A stretch of DNA of 60,922 nt, filler included, from Dugesia japonica (Eukaryota): NCBI GenBank assembly GCA_001938525.1. It is 6 parts of 6 records of this genome, joined end to end, with 100 filler letters (N's around TTAATTAATTAA, not from the genome) between each part and the next. Parts side by side here need not be neighbours in the genome. Positions count along the whole stretch, not along the records: positions 30,698 to 41,712 come from MQRL01635238.1; 5 more parts are not named here. One strand, 5' to 3'. The position numbers were made by a program, and so were the translations under genes. Of this stretch, positions 7,060 through 41,712 are shown one piece after another. The notes beneath the pieces were generated by a model. That model was not told where the DNA came from. It did no database searches and was given only the letters and a program-made list of their open reading frames with translations. How positions within the stretch are numbered: the first letter of the stretch is position 1; every line of letters starts with the position of its first letter.

Positions 7060-8060
7060 TAATTAGCTCGTTATCCAGAGCTGAAGAATTTTGACCCGCC
7101 TAATCTATCAAGAATCTCTTCCACATTTGGCTTTGGAAATGTTTGTCTTTCTGTAATAGCGTTCAGCTGTCGAAAATCCAGAAAGAGACGAATGTCTTTC
7201 TTTTCTTTTTCCCAGATATATACCAGTGGAGTGTTCCATGTTAAATTGCATTTTCGTATAATTCCCGTAATAGATTACGTACCCCTTCGTTTATCTTTTC
7301 CTCTAAGTTTATAGGTGTCCTTCAGGGCTTAACATTTATAGGTTCTCCTTTTGTTATTATTTTATGCTTGACCAGTTTTGTGCATCCTATGTCCCATTTA
7401 TCTGCCATAAAGATATTGGAATGTTTTCTTATCATCTACTTTTCCAATGTATATATCTCGCTCAAAGGTTTTTGACATCTTTCTTCCCCTCTTTTAATGT
7501 TTCCAAAATGCAGTTCAATATTGTAAATCCAATCTTGATTATATTTTTCTGTTGTATCTATCCAACGTAGTTCTAATCCAAAACTGGTTTGCAACTCGAT
7601 GCCACCAATTATGCTAGGAATTACCTTTTCCACAACTACGAAATTAATCCATCTAGTCGTATTGCCGATCCTCACTTCCACCTCAACTCTTCCTTTGGTA
7701 CATAATGAACTGTCGTTAGCACACCGTAGTCCGCTCTTAGTTGCTAATAACGGGGCATCTTTGAATTTGTTAAACACATCTATACCCATCACATTAATCT
7801 TTGCTCCGCTATGCAGTAGGCATTCAAACTCNATGTTTTGGATTTTNATCGCAATACTCGGTCTAGTCTGCATTATATCACTTCTAATCATTTCTTTCTA
7901 CTGTTTTCTTTCTCCTTGACTTTGTTCTCTGATGCTTTATATCTTTCTTCTAGCTTCGGGTCAATCATCTTGCCGATTACAATTTCTTCTAAATCTTTAG
8001 GAATTTTGGCAGCTTTGAAGAATCTACTAAGTTTGAGCCTGGCGTGGTTGCCATATTAGC
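7060..8060 (-). pseudogene. Ty3/gypsy gag-end/protease/RT N-terminal fragment
   Basis: CLLHSGAKINV (degenerate DSG) ... IIGGIEL; DIRLFLDFRQLNAITERQTFPKPNVEEILDRLGGSKFFS. Confidence 0.8.
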
Positions 8061-12153: not shown

Positions 12154-12544
12154 NNNNNNNNNNNNNNNNNNNNNNNNNNNNNNNNNNNNNNNNNNNNNNN
12201 NNNNNNNNNNNNNNNNNNNNNNNNNNNNNNNNNNNNNNNNNNNNNNNNNNNNNNNNNNNNNNNNNNCTAAATTGCTGGATAAACTGTTTCAAACAAGAAG
12301 ATTGAATGGGTGAAAGAATTAGAAGACGTTTTTAATGGAATGAACGAAGTACTAATGATATCTCCAATATTATGTTTTCTAGATATAAAAAGATAATTTA
12401 CACGGATGCAAGTTTTGACACGATTAGTGCAGTACTATCTCAAAGAGACAACAATCGACAGAAAGAGCAATTACATATGAGTCTCACACAATGACGAGTC
12501 ATGAGAAAGTATATTGTACTACGCGGAAAGAATTACTCGCAATT

Positions 12545-13135
12545 TACTAATTTTGTATTCATTTCAAACATTGCTTATATGGAAAGATATTTATTCTTAA
12601 AACCGATAATAAGGCTATCACTTTTATGCTAAATACCAACAAACCGATAATATCACAGTTTCAAACCTGAATTAATTATTTGAACAGTTTAGATATAAAT
12701 TGGAATATAGAAAAGTATTGCTTCATACAAATACGGATATGTTGTCAAGGAGTAAATGCGATACATGTGCACAATGTCTAATGTCACATGAAGATCCCAA
12801 CAGTGGAAAATTAAAAACAAGGATACAGTTAAATACTGTTAAATACTACTTTTGTATTCATTTCAAACATTACTTATATGAGAAGAGATTTATCCTCATA
12901 ACAGACCATAAAGCTACCAGTTTTATGCTAAATACCAAAAATCCGATCACTTCACAGTTTCAAACCTGGATTAATTATTTGAGCAGTTTAGATATAAAAT
13001 TAAAATATAGAAAAGTATCGCTTCATACAAATTCGGATATGTTGTCAAGGAGTAAATGTGATACATGTGGACAGTGTCTAATGTCACACAAAGATCCCAA
13101 AAGTGGAGAATTAAAAACAAGGATGTTAAATACAG
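12545..13135 (+). repeat. ~300-bp tandem duplication inside the gypsy RNase H
   Basis: YFCIHFKH…KYRKV.LHTN.DMLSRSKCDTC.QCLMSH.DP.SG.LKTR occurs twice. Confidence 0.85.
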
Positions 13136-20559: not shown

Positions 20560-21380
20560 ACTCACATTCCCCCTTTTAAGAAATTTTTTAATCTTTACGT
20601 TTCTTTCGAAACTTTTTCCGTTTGTATCTTCCAGGATTTAACGTCTTTCACGAAACCTTTCTCTTGATCTTCTAAAGTCCTTTATAACTATCTTGGTTTC
20701 TATTTCTGGTTTCAGGTTTCATTAAGACCTCATCACCAACCTCGAATTGTCTTTTGGTTAATATTTTTTCCTCTTGTTCTTTCTGCACTCTGAGTATTGG
20801 TTTCATACCATTTTTCTCTGCTGATTTTCTTCCCAAATACGATTTCGGCCGGGCTTTTCCCGATACTTTTCTGTTTTGTAGCGTTTAAAGTAAATTCTAT
20901 CTCTGGCAATAAATCCGCCCAATCTGAGGTTTTCTTTCTTTAAGTGTTGCATTAATCAGATCCCGCATAGTTCTAAACTNTCTCTCGATTTGCCCATTTG
21001 TGCTATAATGATATGGACTCGAAAACCTGAGGGAAATGCTATGTTCAACTACAAAATCTTTCATTGATTTAGACAAAAAAGCTCTTCAACAATCAACTCA
21101 TATTTTTCTTGGACACCTGAACTTAAATATCCACTTCTTCAATATTGCTTTCCGTATAGTATCATCTTGTCTTGTCATTACTATCAAGACTACATACTTA
21201 CTGCATTGGTCTATTATACCGAGAACATATTTTTTCCGACCTCTTGTCTCCGGCAGTGGTCCACACACATCTATAAATAACAGTTCAACATTTCGGCTGG
21301 CTGCGTCTTTGTTGTTTCTTTCTTCCCTTTTGTTGTCAACACTTTACCTTTTTGGATGTTATACAGCTTTGGACAACCTC
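20560..21380 (-). pseudogene. Ty3/gypsy integrase fragment, same family as 13290-14090
   Basis: ELLFIDVCGPLP, FSSPYHYSTNGQIER, DWADLLPEIEFTLNAT..GKSPAEIVFG. Confidence 0.8.
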
Positions 21381-29899: not shown

Positions 29900-30597
29900 C
29901 CCCAATAAATGACAATTTTTCGAAAAAATAAAATTTTATACAAAATATTGTACCAAAAAATTTTAATTATTGGAAAAAATTTAAAATTAAACTAAATAAA
30001 TTGAAATTATACCAAAAAAATTAAATTTATACGAAACAAAATAAAAGTATACCAAAAAAATTGAAATTATTGGAAAAAATTAAAATTAAACCAAAAAAAG
30101 ATTATCTAAAAAAATTAAAATTAAACCAAAAAATTAAAATTGTACAANNNNNNNNNNNNNNNNNNNNNNNNNNNNNNNNNNNNNNNNNNNNNNNNNNATT
30201 AAAATTAAACCAAAAAATTAAAATTGTACAAAAAAATAAATATTTACCAAGAAAATTAAAATTAAACCAAACAAAAATTAAAATTAAACCAAAAAAAATT
30301 AAAATTATATCAAAAAAAAATATAAATTATACCAATAAAATTAAAATTATACCCAAAAAAATTAAAATTAAACCAAAAAAAAATTAAAATTAAACCAAAA
30401 AAAAATTAAAATTATAGAAAAAATTTAAATGATGATACCCAAACAAAATAAAATTAAACCAAAAAATTAAAATTGTACAAAAAAATAAAATTATACCAAA
30501 TAAATTGAAATTATTGGAAAAAATTAAAATTAAACCAAAAAAAGATTATCTAAAAAAATTAAAATTAAAAAAAAGATTCTACCAAAAAATTAAAATT
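29900..30597 (+). repeat. Low-complexity satellite (AAAATTAAAATTA(A/T)ACCAAAA-like units) in WDR26 intron
   Basis: Visible ~20-bp tandem units. Confidence 0.85.
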
Positions 30598-30697
30598 NNN
30601 NNNNNNNNNNNNNNNNNNNNNNNNNNNNNNNNNNNNNNNNNTTAATTAATTAANNNNNNNNNNNNNNNNNNNNNNNNNNNNNNNNNNNNNNNNNNNN
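30598..30697. other. Artificial contig spacer
   Basis: N44-TTAATTAATTAA-N44. Confidence 0.97.
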
Positions 30698-31666: not shown

Positions 31667-32137
31667 ATGCCCACGGAGGTCGTAATACGACAATTATTGC
31701 TAATGCTATATCCAGAACTAAAGATATGGATTNNNNNNNNNNNNNNNNNNNNNNNNNNNNNNNNNNNNNNNNNNNNNNNNNNTCCAGAACTAAAGATATG
31801 GATTGGTAAATTTCAATTATCCGATACCCTCAGACCATTAGCAAAAGAAATAGAAGTAGCCATCAGGAAATTTCCTGCTACTAAAGGAAATAGTCATGGT
31901 ACTAGAGACAATCTAGAAGGGGTGATGGATGAACTGTTACAGGATTCACCCACAAACGGAAGAGTAGTAGTATCAATAGCACACTTAATCAATNAGACAC
32001 ACTTATCAATTGCTAGAAGTAAGCCGTCAAAAAACTTCATTCTCAGTAAGTTGCCGATAGTGGATCTAATGCAAAACAAAATAGTACCATTGATAAAGCA
32101 ACAAGGTGGATGGAAAAAGTTTATTGAGACCATTTGT
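31667..32137 (+). CDS. Bcl-2 family domain within the retroelement polyprotein
   Basis: BH4-like TEVVIRQLLLMLY, BH3-like LSDTLRPLAKEIE, BH1-like LEGVMDELLQDSPTNGRVVVSI and BH2-like KIVPLIKQQGGWKKFIE, in canonical order and spacing. Confidence 0.8.
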
Positions 32138-32245
32138 CCTAAGCCTCAACCATCACATGAAAATGCAACTAGAGTGATAAGAGTCGTTCGGGATCAGTTA
32201 AATGAAATCGAGAATGGATGGACACGTGGACCACATGGAAATTCA

Positions 32246-34446
32246 TGGCAAGCGTTAGCAACCACGATACTCGTATTGTTCTTAATGATGGGCAGAAGCG
32301 AAGCCATATTGGCATATGACTGTGACGGAATGCAAGTTGGAAAGGAAGTCTTTTCGCTGGTAGATACGGAAGAATGCCCAGATGCAAACCCTGAAAAAAT
32401 CTCACTCCGTAACAATTCTGTCTATCATCTCTATCAGGAGTCGGATTATTATAAAGCCCAGGTACGCGAGTGTGCNNNNNNNNNNNNNNNNNNNNNNNNN
32501 NATTGCGGGTACCATAGTTATACGTCAATAATCGACCCAGGAACGGTGAGGCATCCTGTACATCTAACCGGACAGCAATGCGATGAAGGATTTGCTACAG
32601 GAAAAATTACCATCAAACATGGTACTCAGGTTGTTGCCAAGAAAGAACATGTAATCGACCAACCTATAGAAGCAGCAGGAAGTATATCCACCCATAAGNN
32701 NNNNNNNNNNNNNNNNNNNNNNNNNNNNNNNNNNNNNNNNNNNNNNNNGTATGGCAATATGCAATAGCAATCGAAACCTACACGGTAGAACTCAAGGAAT
32801 ATGAAGCATATTTCGATGCCCAAGATTTGACGATGAAGGGAAGATCATACTGCAAGGCAGCCGATGGGGCATGCAATACAGGCACATCAACATTGACATA
32901 CAAAGTAGATCACCAGGACTGTAAGTTGGCATATCTAAAAGAAGCCGTGTTTAATGAATACCAAGGACAACGTGCAATAACACCTACTTATCAAGCACCC
33001 CCAGCAGGTAATCTAAAAGAGGTAATAGATAATTTCAAGGAAACCATAAAGACAGGCCCAAAATCCTATGACCAACAATGGCACGCAACGCCGACGGTAT
33101 TAATGTCTTCGGAACAAGACGAGACTATCCGGTTAATCAAGGGAAATTCCATTTCAAAATGCGGGCAAATATTATTTAAAACAAACTATAAAGGAATATT
33201 CGTGTCCGAACATCGAATAAGAATAGCGAAAGCCGCAGTAATGTCACAAGACATCAAATTACATCTCTTCACCAATAATAAACTGGACAATATATTTCAT
33301 CGAATGCAAGATACCATCGGACAAATGTACCACGACCTCGTTCAAAATGACTGCACGTTAAACAAAGAAATATTAAAAACAAAATTAGCGATGGCAGTTA
33401 CGAACCCTGACAGTGTCACTCCATTACTTTCATTGGAAAAGGGACAATTCAGCCGAATAGTAGGAGAAGTAATGTACTTATACAAATGCAAGGCCATTGA
33501 TGCCGAATTCTCGTCTAATCCAAAACACTGCTACAACGAAATAGAAATTATTCACAACAAGGAGAAAAGATATTTACAACCCATTACTCGAATAATATCG
33601 CCGTTGGGTTATAGACCAAATATCATAAACTGTTCTAATGTATTTGGGCCACAATACGTAATGACAGACGGGTCATGGATAAGATTTCCTCAACGAATGG
33701 CAGTAGGAGTCGAACCACGAAAGTTTTCAATGTTACGGCTAAATGGGGGCATGCAATTTACCCCAATCGATATAAATAAAGGAGGAATCTACAGCAGAGA
33801 AGATTTAGAAAAAGCCAGAGAATATATGTTGTTTCCAGTCCGAAGGATGCAAATTCTCTCCAATATAGTACAATTAACCAGTGGAACCAACATCAACGGG
33901 CGAGTAAATTATGACGCACTATTACCAGCTGATCACTTCCAAAAAGCCACCGAAAATGTTATGAAAAAAATGTGGGGAAGATTCATAATATTTGGCCAAG
34001 CAATGGCAGGATTGTTGGGAGTTATGTTAATAATTTCAGTGACACGAGTAGTAATCACTCAATTATTCGCATGTTTCGATATATACAAAAGAGAGAAAAA
34101 AGTGAACTGGAAAATGGTAACAGGAATTTTTCCATTCTTAGCTAAAACCATGGTGCTTAATAGTCACTCCAAGGACATCGACAGAGTAAAGAGATTCATC
34201 CGAAAGCTCGGACAAATACGAGGATCAGACAAGGAAGTCATAATACAATTCCGACTATTGTGCGAAGAAATGAGCAATGCTAAGAAGAAAATATCATATT
34301 TCAATCAATTCAAAGAAAGGTTTAAAAATAAGGACGCAAGTAGTAGCAGTAGCAACGATGATAGAGGAGAAAACAGTGGAATACCACATGTACCCAGTTA
34401 TAAAACCGCTATGGAATATGATGCAGAATTCAAGAGACAACAATAA
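32246..34446 (+). CDS. Envelope glycoprotein, chuvirus(Jingchuvirales)-G-like, with internal signal (32246-32305) and C-terminal TM (~33982-34077)
   Basis: Signal-like WQALATTILVLFLMMGRSEA, then LAYDC…SLVDTEECP…YQ…C…CGYHSY.S…C…C….G.C…KC…L.KTNY…NNKL…C…GEV.YLYKC…CYNE…YLQPITRII…C…P.Y…GSW…GIYS. Frame continues from 32749 after an N gap. Confidence 0.85.
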
Positions 34447-34794: not shown

Positions 34795-35070
34795 CAGAAA
34801 AGGATAAAAATCGACGGAAGATGGATAATAGCTATTATCGATACAGGAGCAAGTGCGACGTTAGTTCATAAAAGGATATTGGAAGATTATCGTCTACTCA
34901 GAATAACAATTAAATAAGGTGTTATTATCACGGCCTCTGGAGAAAAAATCTCGCCCATTGGGGAAGCAATATGTGCAATAGAAAGCGATGGAACTCGATT
35001 CTGGCATAAATTGCAGATAATGAACGAAGTAGCATTCGATTGCGTATTAGGATTAGACCTGTTGCCACGA
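34795..35070 (+). pseudogene. Retropepsin domain 1 (in-frame TAA at 34915)
   Basis: IKIDGRWIIAIIDTGASATLV (DTG at 34840) … *GVIITASGEKISPIG … DCVLGLDLL. Confidence 0.88.
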
Positions 35071-35394
35071 CTCTGTCCAGATGGACTATTGGATTTGAGC
35101 AAACTAACCATCCGTGAAAACTATAATCAGGAATATGCACCAATAGGTTATTATAAAACGAGAATTATAACACAACCAAAACGACCACCACAATGGACTC
35201 AGCAAAGCTCAAGTAGCCGAAAGGAACAAGGCAACTCCAATCAGAACCATCGAAATATCACCAATACAGCCACCATGATAAAGGATGACTGGATACGGTT
35301 CCAAGAACGGGAACCCAGATGGAAAAGCAAACCACAATTAAACGCCATTAATAACCCATCAGATGTAGTATGCACGAGTCTCAATGGTGGGCCA

Positions 35395-35670
35395 GTATTA
35401 ACTATTATAGTTAGAATCAACGGTCGATCTATAACCGCTCTAGTGGACACCGGAGCAACCATATCATTACTATCTATCGACGAAATTGCGATAACAGAAT
35501 ATAAAAACATAGTACCCACAAATACTACCGCAGATGTAGCGAATGGCAGTAGTCTGAAAATTTTTGGAGAATTGGCCTGTGAAGTCGAGTACCAAGATAA
35601 TAAAATTAAGCACAATATGATTATAGTAGAAATGATGGGACAGTACATTCTAGGGACGGACATTCTTCCC
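35395..35670 (+). CDS. Retropepsin domain 2
   Basis: VRINGRSITALVDTGATISLL (DTG at 35446) … VANGSSLKIFG … YILGTDIL. Confidence 0.92.
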
Positions 35671-36059
35671 ATTCTGATGAAAAATGGAATATTGAATTTC
35701 TCAACATTACGGTTACAATCATTGGAGGGCTATACCCATGTAAAGGATCACGAAGTATTTACCACGCAGGAAATTTTGGTGCCCAGTAGATGCCAAATAT
35801 ACTGTGTAGTCANNNNNNNNNNNNNNNNNNNNNNNNNNNNNNNNNNNNNNNNNNNNNNNNNNNNNNNNNNNNNNNNNNNNNNNNNTACGGCAGGAGGAAT
35901 AACCACCGTAAATAAAAGCGGAGAAATACCAGTCAGCTTGATTAATTTCACGGAAAAAGACATCAAAATCAAGCCAAACTTCAGGATGGGTACATTAACA
36001 CCCATCGAACTAGAACCTACCATAATAGACGAAGTAGCCACCGAACCAGAAATCAACCG

Positions 36060-36597
36060 AACATTTAAAGTAGAAACAGAGACTTTGACGGAGGATCAAA
36101 AACAAGCAATACTGCAATTACTAGAGGAGTTTCGAGACATTGTTGCATGGACCGATGAGGAATTAGGTATGTGCACCGCGACAATGCATACCATTCCACT
36201 AACAGATGAAACNNNNNNNNNNNNNNNNNNNNNNNNNNNNNNNNNNNNNNNNAAAGAATTCGCAAATAAAGAAACAGCCAAATTAGTGAAAATAGGCGTA
36301 ATAGAACCTAGCTGCTCACCATGGCAGTCACCAGTGGTGTTGGTAGATAAAAAAGATGGCACACTGAGATTTTGCATTGATTACAGAAGATTAAATGCCC
36401 AAACTAAGTAGGATACATATCCATTACCAGATATCAATGAACTGTTGCAACTACTGTGTAATGCTAAAATATTCACCATATTAGATCTGCGAAGCGGTTA
36501 CTGGCAAATAAAGATCAAACCCGAAGATAGGGAGAAAACCGCCTTCTCTACAGGCAAAGACTTGTATCAGTTTATCCGTATGCCATTCGGGCTTACT
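36060..36597 (+). pseudogene. Reverse transcriptase, N-terminal half only (TAG at 36409; YxDD region deleted)
   Basis: [40 protein letters not shown]…LDLRSGYWQI…KTAF…MPFGLT, joined directly to QQSFETLRDKLLTAPIL. Confidence 0.93.
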
Positions 36598-36599
36598 AA

Positions 36600-37040
36600 A
36601 TGCAACAATCATTTGAAACATTACGTGATAAATTATTAACCGCACCAATTCTAGTACATCCAGATTTTAAAAAGCCATTTATATTAGCCACCGACGCTAG
36701 TGGATACGCGATGGGGGCGGTGTTAAGTCAATTGGATGAACAAGGGAGAGAAAGAGTAATAGCGTATTTTAGCAAGAAATTCCAAGGAGCATAATTAAAT
36801 TACAGTACCACGGAACGAGAGATAATGGCAATCGTGAAGGCTACCAAGCACTTCAGGTCATTGATACATGGACATGCAGTATTAATCTATACGGATCACT
36901 TACCAATCACTTTCATGGCCCAGAAACCACTGCGATGGAATAGGATGGCCAAGTGGCAATTGGCAATGCAAGACTATTGTCCACTGTTAAAATTTAAAAC
37001 AGGTAAGGCAAACTCCAATGCCGACTGCCTGTCCAGAATC
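36600..37040 (+). pseudogene. RNase H (TAA at 36792)
   Basis: PFILATDASGYAMGAVLSQ…IAYFS…NYSTTEREIMAI…YTDH…NSNADCLSR. Confidence 0.93.
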
Positions 37041-37339
37041 GGTGGACCAGAAGCTACAGAAAACACACCAGAAAATACAGAAACGTTTACCTTACGAGAA
37101 TTATTGGAGAAGAAAGTGGGCATGGTATATTTTATTTTAGCCGAAGATAGAAATTTCGACGGATTGAAACAAGCACAAACAGACGATGAAGAAATAAAGA
37201 TCATCACAAANNNNNNNNNNNNNNNNNNNNNNNNNNNNNNNNNNNNNNNNNNNNNNNNNNNNNNNNNNNNNNNNNNNNNNNNNNNNNNNNNNNNNNNNNN
37301 NNNNNNNNNNTTGACAGCTCAGGATGGAGAAAACACCGT

Positions 37340-38315
37340 ATTAGTTATTCCTAAAGTACGACGAGCTGCGTTACTAGAGCAGTACCACAATGGGGTACTC
37401 GGGGACATATGTCCCATAAGAAAACTGAGTCCAAGCTGAGACAGAAATATTACTGGCCACAGATGACGGAATCGGTAAAGGAATGGATTGCTAAATGCCA
37501 AATATGTGCAGCCAGAAGAGGAACAGGAAAGAGAGTAAAAGCATTACTAAAATCCATTGCGGTACCAGCAGCACCAATGGAAATAATTGCCATGGATGTA
37601 GTAGGACCACTACCACCTACTTTAAGCGGGAATATTTACATCCTCACCATATCGGATTATTTATCTAAATTCCCGGAGGCATTCCCTATGAAAAATCAAA
37701 AAGCAACCACCATCGCAGATATCCTGGTACGTAAGGTTTTCAGTCGTTATGGGACGCCAAAGAAAATATTGACGGATCAAGGGAAGAACTTTATGAGTAA
37801 CGTCTTGGCAGAAATATCGAGTTTCCTGAAAATTCACCAATTACGAACTTCACCATACCACCCACAAACGGATGGGTTAACGGAACGATTTAACAAAACC
37901 TTGATCAATATGCTGTCCAGTTATGCTCAAAAGAAACAAAATAATTGGGATAAACATATTCAACTTTGCTTATTCGCGTATCGGATGAGTGTACATCGGC
38001 AACGAAATACACGAAATTCGGTCTTATGTATGGTAGGGAGTGCAACATGCCGATTGACTTAGAATTCCAACCACCAATAACGCAATATCAAGACGAAACG
38101 GATTTTGCAGCAAATTTCAAAGAAACTATGCAGAAAATCTGGAAACAGGCAAAGGAGAATGTAGGTTTCTACCAGGAGAGCTACAAGGATCTACATGATA
38201 AATCAGCAATGCAACATTCCTTTAAAAAAGGTGTCATGGTATTGATCAATCTACCGGACATTTGTGTCGGTACAACATCGAAATTAAAAAGACCATGGCA
38301 AGGACCGTATGAAGT
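37340..38315 (+). pseudogene. Integrase (HHCC, DDE core, GPY/F), two frameshifts
   Basis: YH…GH…YYWPQM…CQIC; AMDVVGPLP; ISDYLSKF; LTDQGKNF; SPYHPQTDGLTERFN; WQGPYEV. Confidence 0.95.
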
Positions 38316-38624
38316 TAAACGGTCTCAGCGAGGACGCTGAGTTTAAAGAAAACGGGGAAGGATTAATATCGGGAGAAGAGAGTCTAGTAAAACCAGAAAC
38401 GGGTCTACCTACCGCAAATTCGGAAAGTACAGAATCAGAATCGCAAAAGATAAAGGGAGTATTAAGGACTGATAATTTTAAACACACCACCAACATAGAA
38501 AAGGCTGAGGAAAGTAGTACAATCATAACCACTTTACCAAATATTTCAGTGTAGGAGCAAGGAAGTAAATTATGTAAAATCAAATATGCATTAAGTAATA
38601 CCTTGTAATTATAAAGAAAATGTT

Positions 38625-40144
38625 ATGAAACAAAAAACTAAAACAATACCTTTCAATTCAGGTAGCCAAATGCGCCGACCACTTATAATAGAAGTCATGA
38701 GCGCCACCACACTCTACCCAATCATATACCAAGGAATCCAAACGCCGGAAACAGAGGAGAATTGTGCTCATATCATAAAGATAACGTGCCCACTTTCAAT
38801 AACACAACTGGAAGGAAGCTGTGCGCAATGTATAAAGAAAGCGCAAATCATACTAAAAACTACATGGAGGGTTATTCATGAGCAAAAGGCATGGTTATCA
38901 AGACGAGAGAATTGGTTCAAAAAAGATTGTGAAGGGTCACGAATCAAACTACCAATTGAAGCACCTATCCGGCAATCTACCGTAAAAAAGTCATGTTAGT
39001 CCTGCACCAAAATATACAGCGAAAAGTTGTTAACAGCCATTCATTTATTTCACCTTACGCTAGTACAATGGAATTGGATTAGAGTATACGAACCACAAAA
39101 AATTCTATTGCCAGGAAGTATGAGTGGACCACCAATCAAAAGATATCTAACCTGGGAAAAATCGAAATCGAATAATATCGTAAAGCCCGTAAAAGAAGGC
39201 AAAATCCAAGGGGAAGCAACAAAAGAAAAATTGCAAGAACAAGAAGANNNAATGGAAGAAAGAGAAAAGCAATTAGTCCGAACAACGCACAGAAGGACAA
39301 AGAAAAGGAAAATGATCGAGACACCGGAGGAGGCGGAACAAATGAAACCAAGTGAACCAAAAAAGAAATTATTACAAGAAAGTAAACAGAAGAATACCTT
39401 GGGAATGATAATTAGGTCATTCTTGATGTTATGGGTAATNNNNNNNNNNNNNNNNNNNNNNNNNNNNNNNNNNNNNNNNNNNNNNNNNNNNNNNNNNNNN
39501 NNNNNNNNNNNNNNNNNNNNNNNNNNNNNNNNNNNNNNNNNNNNNNNNNNNNNNNNNNNNNNNNTCTGCCAACACTGGCAATTCAGCAAATACCGATTCC
39601 AGATCAGAATCGAATGTTTAATGAACAAATAATACTCATAATCTTAGTAATAGTGACAAAGGGGATTAAATGCCAGGATTGCTGGACTAATGAGATAATA
39701 TTAACGGAACATAGAATCCATATTTATGACCATAAAACTACCATTCGAACCATGAGTAACGACGGGAGAAAGCGCGAAATAAAAGTTTTCGAAAGTTATG
39801 AACAGGTATCGGTACTATTAAAACCAGCCATCGATGGATCTAAGGGGAGCCGAATGCTACTATCCTGGTATGCGTGGAAAGCAAGTTTATGGTACAAAGG
39901 TGATGTACCGATAGACGGGCAAGCAATGCACTTCAACGAGAAGGACTGGTGGATGCATTCAGCACAGGAAATTCAAGGGGAACAAAAAAGAAGAGGTAGC
40001 CAGATACACAGTAGAACCTCGATATGGACCCATAACCAATTCAAAAGAAACCTGTCTCAGTCAATCGTGACAGAAATATTACGAAAATACGGTTCCGAAC
40101 TCCGAACTGGCGTCCCGAGCAGTATAATGGAAGAAGTCGATTAG
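38625..40144 (+). pseudogene. Additional 3' ORF(s) of unknown function between integrase and LTR
   Basis: 38625-38999 and 39027-39440 are in the same frame, split by one TAG. Cys-containing N-part, charged middle, hydrophobic stretches (LGMIIRSFLMLWV; IILIILVIV), then ~190 further open codons. Confidence 0.55.
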
Positions 40145-40414
40145 AACAAGCGAAGCCCGGTGTAAATAAACTGTAATTAAAATTAAACTATAGTGACTAT
40201 CTGATCATAGTAAATAAATGAACTATAAATGTATCAATGTATACCGTAGTAAATGTATAATATAGAAAATTTATGTATGTGTTATGAGACTAGCATGTAA
40301 TGACCTTAGAATTTGCCTTGATCTGTCAATTTTAATAGGGTCAAAGGATTTTCTGCAGCGGGGACGGGCAATGACAAATTCCGGGACGGAATTTAAACAA
40401 GACGGAGAGCGATT

Positions 40415-41712
40415 TGTTGGGGTGAAACACTCACTAAAGTAGAGAATAGTCAATATCAGAATTTACAAGGAAAGAAATAAAGCACAAAAGCAACATGAAA
40501 AGGAAATGAAGTTAAAATAAAGAAAATGCGGGGAAAATAGAAGCCACTTATGATCATTAATTAAGAAAAATTAATAAATGAAAAGAATTAACAAGAAAAA
40601 ATATTATGGAAAATAATTAATTAATATGGAAAAATTAATTAATTTCAAACGAAAAATAAACAAAATTAGATAAAAATGTTTTTTACCATTTACTCCGGCC
40701 CAGGACGTCAGAAAAAGTTCAAACAAGAAAAATTGAATAGAAAACAAGTCGGTGCAATTAGAATNNNNNNNNNNNNNNNNNNNNNNNNNNNNNNNNNNNN
40801 NNNNNNNNNNNNNNNNNNNNNNNNNNNNNNNNNNNNNNNNNNNNNNNNNNNNNNNNNNNNNNNNNNNNNNNNNNNNNNNNNNNNNNNNNTTGCCAATCAT
40901 GGCACCAAAATTCAAATAAAATCATAGAAAAATGGAACGAGAACCAATAGCAGCAGAAAAACGTGGATCCAGAAATACCCACAAACCAAGAGCGAGTCGG
41001 GGTGTCGTGAAAATCGTATATAAGGATTTTCAAATTTAACAGAAAAAACCATTAATTGTAATTTATCAACCGAAGTTAGAAAAACTACATTTAACTCATA
41101 TTTCTTACTTGGATATTCGGAACTATTATCTAGCCACTTATATCTTCGTAAATATCACCTATCAGTGTTCTCCGATTTACTCATAGCGTATTTTGCGAAG
41201 TTGTTTAAGAATTTTGAATCAGTTATAATTTTTAAGAAATTCAAGAAGCCGCGGAAATTTCAGTTTGTCAGGATCAACACAGGATTGGTGCAGTGTTAAC
41301 AAAAACCCCGTTACGGAAATCAATACTTTTACTCAGCAAAAATCGAATTCAAGTAACAACTTTTCTTTCTGATAATTATATGTGATGTAAAATTTTGTTT
41401 TCCTTAAATTATCGTTAATAAACTTGATCATAAAAAATTTTCTTTTTGTTAATATTAGTATTTATCATTTAATTCGACAATTTAAGTTGATCTAAAGTTT
41501 CTAATAAATAATATAAAGGTGATCCGTTAACACATNNNNNNNNNNNNNNNNNNNNNNNNNNNNNNNNNNNNNNNTATAAAACTAATACGGTTATGTTCTT
41601 ATGTTTCCATCTGTTATTCCGTACCTTGCGTATTCACTAAAATTGTTATAGCATCAAATTCTTAAGTAACATTATCAGTTAAAATAATTTAAAGGAGTTA
41701 AAAAAGCGTTTA
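40415..41712 (+). repeat. 3' LTR (right end not determined) with CCAAT (40944), GGGGTGT and TATATAA (41017)
   Basis: TG start after purine-rich AAACAAGACGGAGAGCGA. The same terminal 16-mer occurs at 47220, and a 1-mismatch reverse copy ends at 26334. Confidence 0.8.

Follow-up and report, generated by a model that had tools for sequence, protein, structure and literature searches.

The source on the giant planarian Ty3/gypsy element Burro/GYPSM1 is reportedly Grohme 2018, as cited by Arkhipova and Yushenova 2019. ORF1 of Burro is described as carrying Gag, a Ubi2/SUMO-like domain, BCL2, an in-frame mononegavirus-like Env, PR, a dUTPase-like domain and RT, while signals and topology are not discussed in the Burro section of the same source (PMC6431247). 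BURRO1 RNA appears on smedwi-2 RNAi (PMC8532177). Errantiviruses of the GAG-ENV-POL order with an HSV/gB-type Env are known from Platyhelminthes, Nematoda and Bryozoa, and their ectodomains lie either between a signal and a TM or between two TMs (Chary and Hayashi, PMC13524379). 'Bcl' does not occur in the text of that work or in seven supplements, and the parts covered here contain no internal-signal cleavage model. Gene order and Env type are shared between these errantiviruses and the element described below.

The capsid anchor of flaviviruses is a further point of comparison, the capsid-side protein ending in a segment that acts as signal of the glycoprotein behind it. For HCV core-E1, core is reported to be anchored to the ER by the E1 signal after signal peptidase cleavage and then to be freed by SPP (PMC5402940). 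The likeness to our locus would consist in an upstream capsid-side piece left anchored at the ER, with a possible second cut; the sequences, however, are unrelated, Gag-UBL-Bcl-2 makes up the upstream piece here, and the Env anchor is succeeded by Pol.

The element and its state in the window

The window, i.e., the whole stretch of 60,922 nucleotides from Dugesia japonica (GCA_001938525.1) that was analyzed, has a GC content of about 0.25 and contains a GC-richer island at 30.7-40.8 kb (about 0.36-0.39 over 31-39 kb). Pfam searches of 12 segments and tblastn with relatives revealed there the Ty3/gypsy order of ubiquitin-like, Bcl-2-like, helix, Env, TM, PR, PR, dUTPase-like (weak), RT, RNase H and integrase (Table 1). 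As in Burro/GYPSM1, ubiquitin-like, BCL2-like, Env and PR follow each other in this order, Env is of the mononegavirus/gB type and many copies exist. Differences from Burro are that BIR, MATH and ankyrin gave no Pfam match in the 31 segments scanned, the 5' part of the element being absent, and that relatives of 2100-2900 aa found here often have no Bcl-2. The Bcl-2-Env fusion is not new, because the order has been published for planarian Burro elements. An accident of the window copy, an explanation that the initial annotation had also argued against, was rejected, since the fusion is in frame in seven relatives as well as published for Burro (PMC6431247). We regard the element as a broken Burro-like gag-env-pol Ty3/gypsy copy. 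The processing model presented below, which is well supported, was not found in print; literature searches returned no account of an internal signal for Burro-like elements, and Grohme 2018, Sacco 2022 or supplements may already treat topology.

Table 1. Features of the Burro-like element (positions along the window).
Feature	Position	Strand	Remarks
Ubiquitin-like segment	30698..30877	+	Matches P0004 aa 50-99, E 6.6e-7; first visible part of the element
Bcl-2-like domain	31673..32140	+	Core 31817-32140; first helix interrupted by N run 31733-31782
Variable linker	32141..32251	+	BH2 Trp to h-region 47 aa; 25-57 in relatives; unconserved in alignment
Predicted internal signal	32252..32305	+	14-residue h-region 32252-32293, c-region RSEA; cleavage predicted behind 32305
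Env ectodomain (class III fusogen of gB / mononegavirus type)	32306..33981	+	PF24664 E 8.9e-19 and 2.4e-61
Env transmembrane anchor	33982..34044	+	21 uncharged residues
Short apolar segment	34108..34146	+	10 residues, with Pro, between basic residues; conserved
Aspartic protease 1	34804..35073	+	Pfam and tblastn; in-frame stop 34915-34917
Aspartic protease 2	35404..35667	+	PF13975 E 4.3e-8
dUTPase-like segment (weak)	35890..35991	+	PF00692 E 0.075; lies between PR and RT, as expected
RT N-part and RNase H	36250..37049	+	PF17917; stop 36409-36411
Integrase (zinc finger and core)	37403..38316	+	PF00665 E 2.9e-14, PF17921; frame changes
Candidate second signal-like helix	39617..39673	+	Hydropathy; region shared by few copies, unrelated sequence behind
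High-depth non-coding stretch	40086..40807	.	Possibly 3' LTR; occurs only once in the window

The element starts at an N gap, and no tblastn match to gag was obtained in the window. The ubiquitin-like segment alone gave no Pfam match and was not significant against a UBL profile from five relatives (E 0.63), whereas its pairwise match to P0004 was; at the corresponding place P0011 has a weak Pfam ubiquitin match (E 0.031). The window copy is dead: stops occur at 34444, 34915 and 36409, pol shows frame changes, and about 130 RT codons, including the catalytic region, are missing at 36597-36615, where tblastn with P0016 skips from aa 1491 to 1620 without intervening DNA. The frame also differs across the N run 32699-32748, N runs resembling scaffold gaps in which the frame is undefined. 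Owing to these breaks, the window copy does not yield a continuous polyprotein.

The family is high-copy, 2.8 kb of the element being matched by 14,901 contig pieces from a single DNA run, and other copies differ from the window copy at some of its breaks. Raw RNA reads aligned only in part, none of them being 99% alike, and amounted to 0, 13 and 0 over 2.8 kb and to 37 over 10.8 kb. Depth over the possible 3' LTR was strongest in a read run guessed to be RNA, and no LTR pair was found within the window. Elsewhere in the window, the remains of further gypsy-type RT, RNase H and integrase sequences lie at 7077-7435 (-), 12292-13086 (+) and 20930-21304 (-). An A-rich array with units of 19-22 nt (29900-30600) is located directly upstream of the element, an N gap lying between them. 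At 51950-52325, a TAT/ATA microsatellite flanks an N run on both sides; it was scored as a 188-nt inverted repeat and is probably an assembly feature.

The Bcl-2-like domain and the helix that follows it

The Bcl-2-like domain is likely homologous to the Bcl-2 family. Its match to Pfam PF00452 is below the cut-off (E 0.0084; 17.1 bits versus a gathering threshold of 31.4, with 16.5-23.6 bits in relatives). The single sequence reached only E 0.87 against the PDB, all 29 rows being Bcl-xL, while a family profile of nine sequences retrieved Bcl-xL at E 1.7e-5, then A179L and Bfl-1. The AF2 model (pLDDT 64.7) had no Foldseek match at 0.001, all listed rows belonging to the Bcl-2 family (E 0.02-0.07), and its best structural match among 48,161 chains was BAK (Z 8.7, rmsd 3.4, 106 aligned), a modest value for a helical bundle. 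For P0003 the model was poor (pLDDT 54), with a Foldseek match to Bcl-xL at E 0.021, and ESM Atlas returned unnamed clusters below 0.9 and no Bcl-2 for its aa 10-152. Known Bcl-2 proteins, both cellular and viral (Bcl-xL, Bak, ASFV A179L), share with this domain the helical fold, the BH2 GGW (kept, at 32105), the BH1 position (TNGR at 31952) and a downstream hydrophobic helix. However, the domain here lies inside a polyprotein, its BH3 position (LRPLAKEIE) is without Gly-Asp, and the downstream helix would be a signal rather than a post-translationally inserted tail. Furthermore, the BH1 Gly has been lost in most relatives, and because it is retained in the window alone (one of seven aligned carriers), BH3 binding is uncertain.

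The initial annotation had proposed that a single hydrophobic helix, about 35 aa after BH2, serves both as tail anchor of Bcl-2 and as signal of Env. Such a helix is present, its start lying 36 aa beyond the BH2 helix, which ends ..GGWKKFIETIC, and 45 aa beyond the BH2 Trp: positions 32246-32305 translate to WQALATTILVLFLMMGRSEA, with ILAYDC next in frame (the junction spans 32246-32323). In the hydropathy scan it forms the sole peak with KD19 of at least 1.5 in its 378-aa ORF, and the match to Pfam PF24664 (viral fusion glycoprotein) starts at it (ORF aa 209-354, E 8.9e-19). Signal peptidase has been described as restricted to h-regions of fewer than 18 residues and as binding a 5-residue c-region (PMC13385932). 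The features of a cleavable signal, namely an h-region below 18, a short polar c-region and small P1 and P3, are found here as 14 residues, RSEA, Ala and Ser, in agreement with the S-E-A site suggested previously.

Signal and TM features were scored by hand-coded rules, the loose signal rule being also positive on the Env TM and some protease strands. A [YF]DC anchor could be placed in 28 of 30 sequences (P0002 is without the region and the pattern did not pick up P0024); of these 28, two that begin at the motif were excluded, leaving 26 to be scored for the (-3,-1) pattern. Small residues occupy -1 and -3 of the predicted site in 24/26 (background 0.114), compared with 17/26 and 12/26 at the next-best offsets, and the exceptions to the -1 rule at the predicted offset are P0007 and P0012. 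Together with the sole hydropathy peak, this pattern makes the helix more than a chance occurrence. The counts express conservation rather than 26 independent tests, because of the relatedness of the sequences and because a query containing the site retrieved most of them; the query contained the helix for all relatives except P0001 and P0002. The apolar run, 14 residues long in the window copy, is below 18 in 24 of the 26 sequences. No basic C-segment of the kind seen in C-terminal tail anchors comes after the 14-residue h-region; it is followed by RSEA, with one basic and one acidic residue, and then by Env in frame. In view of these features, the helix is likely a cleavable internal signal of Env common to the family.

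Bcl-2 and the helix among relatives

A search with the Bcl-2-helix-Env start against 1.84 billion representatives yielded 27 proteins at E of 0.001 or below, to which the Env C-part added two more. When the Bcl-2-helix region was used in word-based searches for homologues, one search gave none among 709 candidates and another only P0022, and a metagenome locus scan produced 28 pattern matches and no relative. A visual comparison placed the window Env closest to Smed_errantivirus_5/6 (shared IETYTVELKEYEA), while P0013/P0019 almost match Smed_errantivirus_1. P0013 and P0019 are chimeric gene calls, in which the Env start is joined to the C-terminus of an FAD oxidase and to MRP-L47, both host genes.

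A profile of the Bcl-2 part was positive in 7/29 relatives (P0003, P0005, P0006, P0007, P0011, P0012 and P0022), i.e., in those with the in-frame fusion. In a leave-one-out analysis all seven profile members (six relatives and the window) were recovered at E of 4.7e-11 or lower, and non-carriers scored no better than 0.23. The helix is present and Bcl-2 absent in seven other relatives (P0001, P0004, P0016, P0020, P0023, P0027 and P0028), each with at least 120 aa upstream, though only 141-161 aa are visible ahead of the helix in P0023, P0027 and P0028; this count excludes the chimeric P0019, and P0025 is ambiguous. In Env trees, the sister pairs P0001/P0007 (99/97) and P0004/window (98/95) are discordant for Bcl-2, and the resolved branches force at least three Bcl-2 changes in the 14-row tree and two in the 22-row tree, most other branches being unresolved. 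Helix length is similar in carriers and non-carriers (12.3 vs. 13.1, p 0.56), and KD11 is 2.68 with Bcl-2 vs. 3.03 without (p 0.04, for samples that are not independent); eight sequences were compared with eight, the Bcl-2-less group including P0019. It appears from these relatives that the helix tracks Env, not Bcl-2, and that Bcl-2 is to be regarded as a dispensable accessory of the element. Since Bcl-2-less relatives keep the same helix, tethering of Bcl-2 would be a side effect only.

Of the dual role proposed initially, the Env signal is supported, while the Bcl-2 tail anchor is not supported as stated, in view of the seven Bcl-2-less relatives, the signal-like length and the missing basic C-segment. 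We lean toward a reading in which the helix is a family-wide internal Env signal and the Bcl-2 piece is tethered to the ER only via the retained stub, transiently or incidentally. Any tethering of Bcl-2 would be co-translational and at the ER. The Bcl-2-like domain is always the last one before the helix (8/8 carriers), so that after cleavage it would sit on an ER stub; in P0011 it forms the terminal part of a Gag-UBL-Bcl-2 piece and is not a free protein. In all carriers Bcl-2 lies at a distance of 42-77 aa from the cut (48-77 aa for the BH2 Trp, in 8/8), which counts against our reading, as it fits a use for the tether.

The stub might instead be a lasting ER anchor needed for an anti-death role of Bcl-2, one helix then having two selected jobs. 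The constant position of Bcl-2 mirrors the domain-then-anchor order of cellular proteins, and Burro also has BIR domains (PMC6431247). However, carrier helices are neither longer nor more hydrophobic than the others, KD11 being in fact lower, and RSEA offers a single basic residue, compared with the at least two described as required in the mitochondrial tails of Bak and Bcl-xL (PMC3307716). In addition, Bcl-2 was gained or lost at least two to three times while the helix remained constant, and the BH1 Gly has mostly disappeared. We thus consider a lasting anchor unlikely, yet not negligible.

Membrane topology and processing

Env contains N runs at 32476-32501 and 32699-32748 in the window copy. 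Its ectodomain has 14 Cys in 7/7 natural relatives and only 1-2 sequons, too few to indicate topology, and no sequence match of the Env C-part to solved fusogens was obtained. An Env TM had previously been placed at about 33982-34077, and a run of 21 uncharged residues was indeed located there, a length conserved in seven of eight sequences (18 in one). Behind it, the short apolar run has 10 residues in 8/8 sequences, and the best KD19 in the following 60 aa does not exceed 1.5. The segment is too short for a TM and likely lies near the membrane on its cytosolic face; a further true TM downstream of Env was rejected, the runs there having only 10 residues. Across the Env TM the charges are only weakly biased, with a net charge of +3 to +5 in the 40 aa after it and +1 to +3 in about 20 before.

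Helix-Env-TM-PR-RT-RH-IN constitute one ORF in P0016 and P0023, and Gag-zinc knuckle-UBL-Bcl-2-helix-Env in P0011; Gag to Env is continuous in one ORF in P0001, P0011 and P0020. Continuity of gag-env-pol is hence seen only across the overlapping natural relatives P0001, P0011, P0016, P0020 and P0023. Just four segments with KD19 of at least 1.5 exist in the 2627 aa of P0016, and from the Env TM up to the integrase end there is none. There is likely one membrane anchor between Env and Pol, and because the single-ORF relatives show one, Pol is likely back in the cytosol. The proposed return of PR-RT-IN by the Env TM is supported by this count in P0016 and P0023. Several aspartic proteases in series were observed in relatives (P0007, P0020, P0023 and P0028), and P0023 has another after integrase.

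According to the model that we favor, Gag, UBL and Bcl-2 would initially be synthesised in the cytosol. Subsequently, the helix would engage SRP/Sec61 and Env would be threaded into the lumen, where signal peptidase would very probably cut after SEA. The lumenal Env suggested by the initial annotation is supported by the (-3,-1) conservation and the signal-like length. The 21-residue TM would then very probably halt transfer, PR-RT-RH-IN emerging in the cytosol, and Gag-UBL-Bcl-2 would remain on the stub until its release. This might take place through the element's own protease cutting the 25-57 aa linker, or through signal peptide peptidase clipping the stub, as with HCV core. Release of Bcl-2 is a guess, given that the linker revealed no protease site.

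In errantiviruses of the gag-pol-env order a spliced or internally started Env message is usual. If Env were likewise made here mainly from such a message, the helix would be an ordinary N-terminal signal and the long ORF would serve for Gag-Pol only, and some relatives (P0003, P0005 and P0022) do have a Met just ahead of the h-region. However, no Met occurs before the h-region (30 aa before the cut) in the window, P0001, P0004, P0016 and P0023, and in the single-ORF relatives Pol can be reached only via the helix and the Env TM, which makes such a message improbable. An uncleaved signal-anchor, with Env held at both ends and joined to Gag-Bcl-2 until the viral protease acts, appears very improbable, since the flanking of some gB-type ectodomains by two predicted TMs (PMC13524379) and the broken -1 rule of P0007 and P0012 are set against a (-3,-1) site kept in 24/26 sequences and an h-region that is short relative to the 21-residue anchor.

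P0016 (aa 2253-2568) and P0023 (aa 2484-2742) carry after integrase a second signal-like helix, a domain of 210-250 aa and a TM. The two domains share CNxLxPDTxYxI, and that of P0016 retrieved fn3 clusters at 0.89-0.91 in ESM Atlas, with low recognition; an Fn3-like nature is at present a lead. In the window, the candidate second helix falls where read depth drops about 100-fold (39364-39724), and no blastp match to the tails of P0016 or P0023 was found for 39566-40141. A broader and rather doubtful extension is that these elements are built in a flavivirus-like and not a retrovirus-like manner, as an ER-threaded polyprotein crossing the membrane up to four times. The stub would anchor Gag, together with a death regulator captured as Bcl-2, in place of myristoylation, the Env TM would tether Pol, and the post-integrase signal would export an Fn3-like surface protein. 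If this is true, Gag, Env and Pol would be present at a fixed 1:1:1 ratio on one membrane.

How Env enters the ER and Pol returns from a single gag-env-pol ORF is unaddressed in the literature found. The dispensable capture of Bcl-2 tempers the idea of a dual use of the helix, while the conserved site permits an exact prediction of the Env N-terminus. The model may thus offer a simple assembly scheme for the envelope-bearing retrotransposons of a model animal group.
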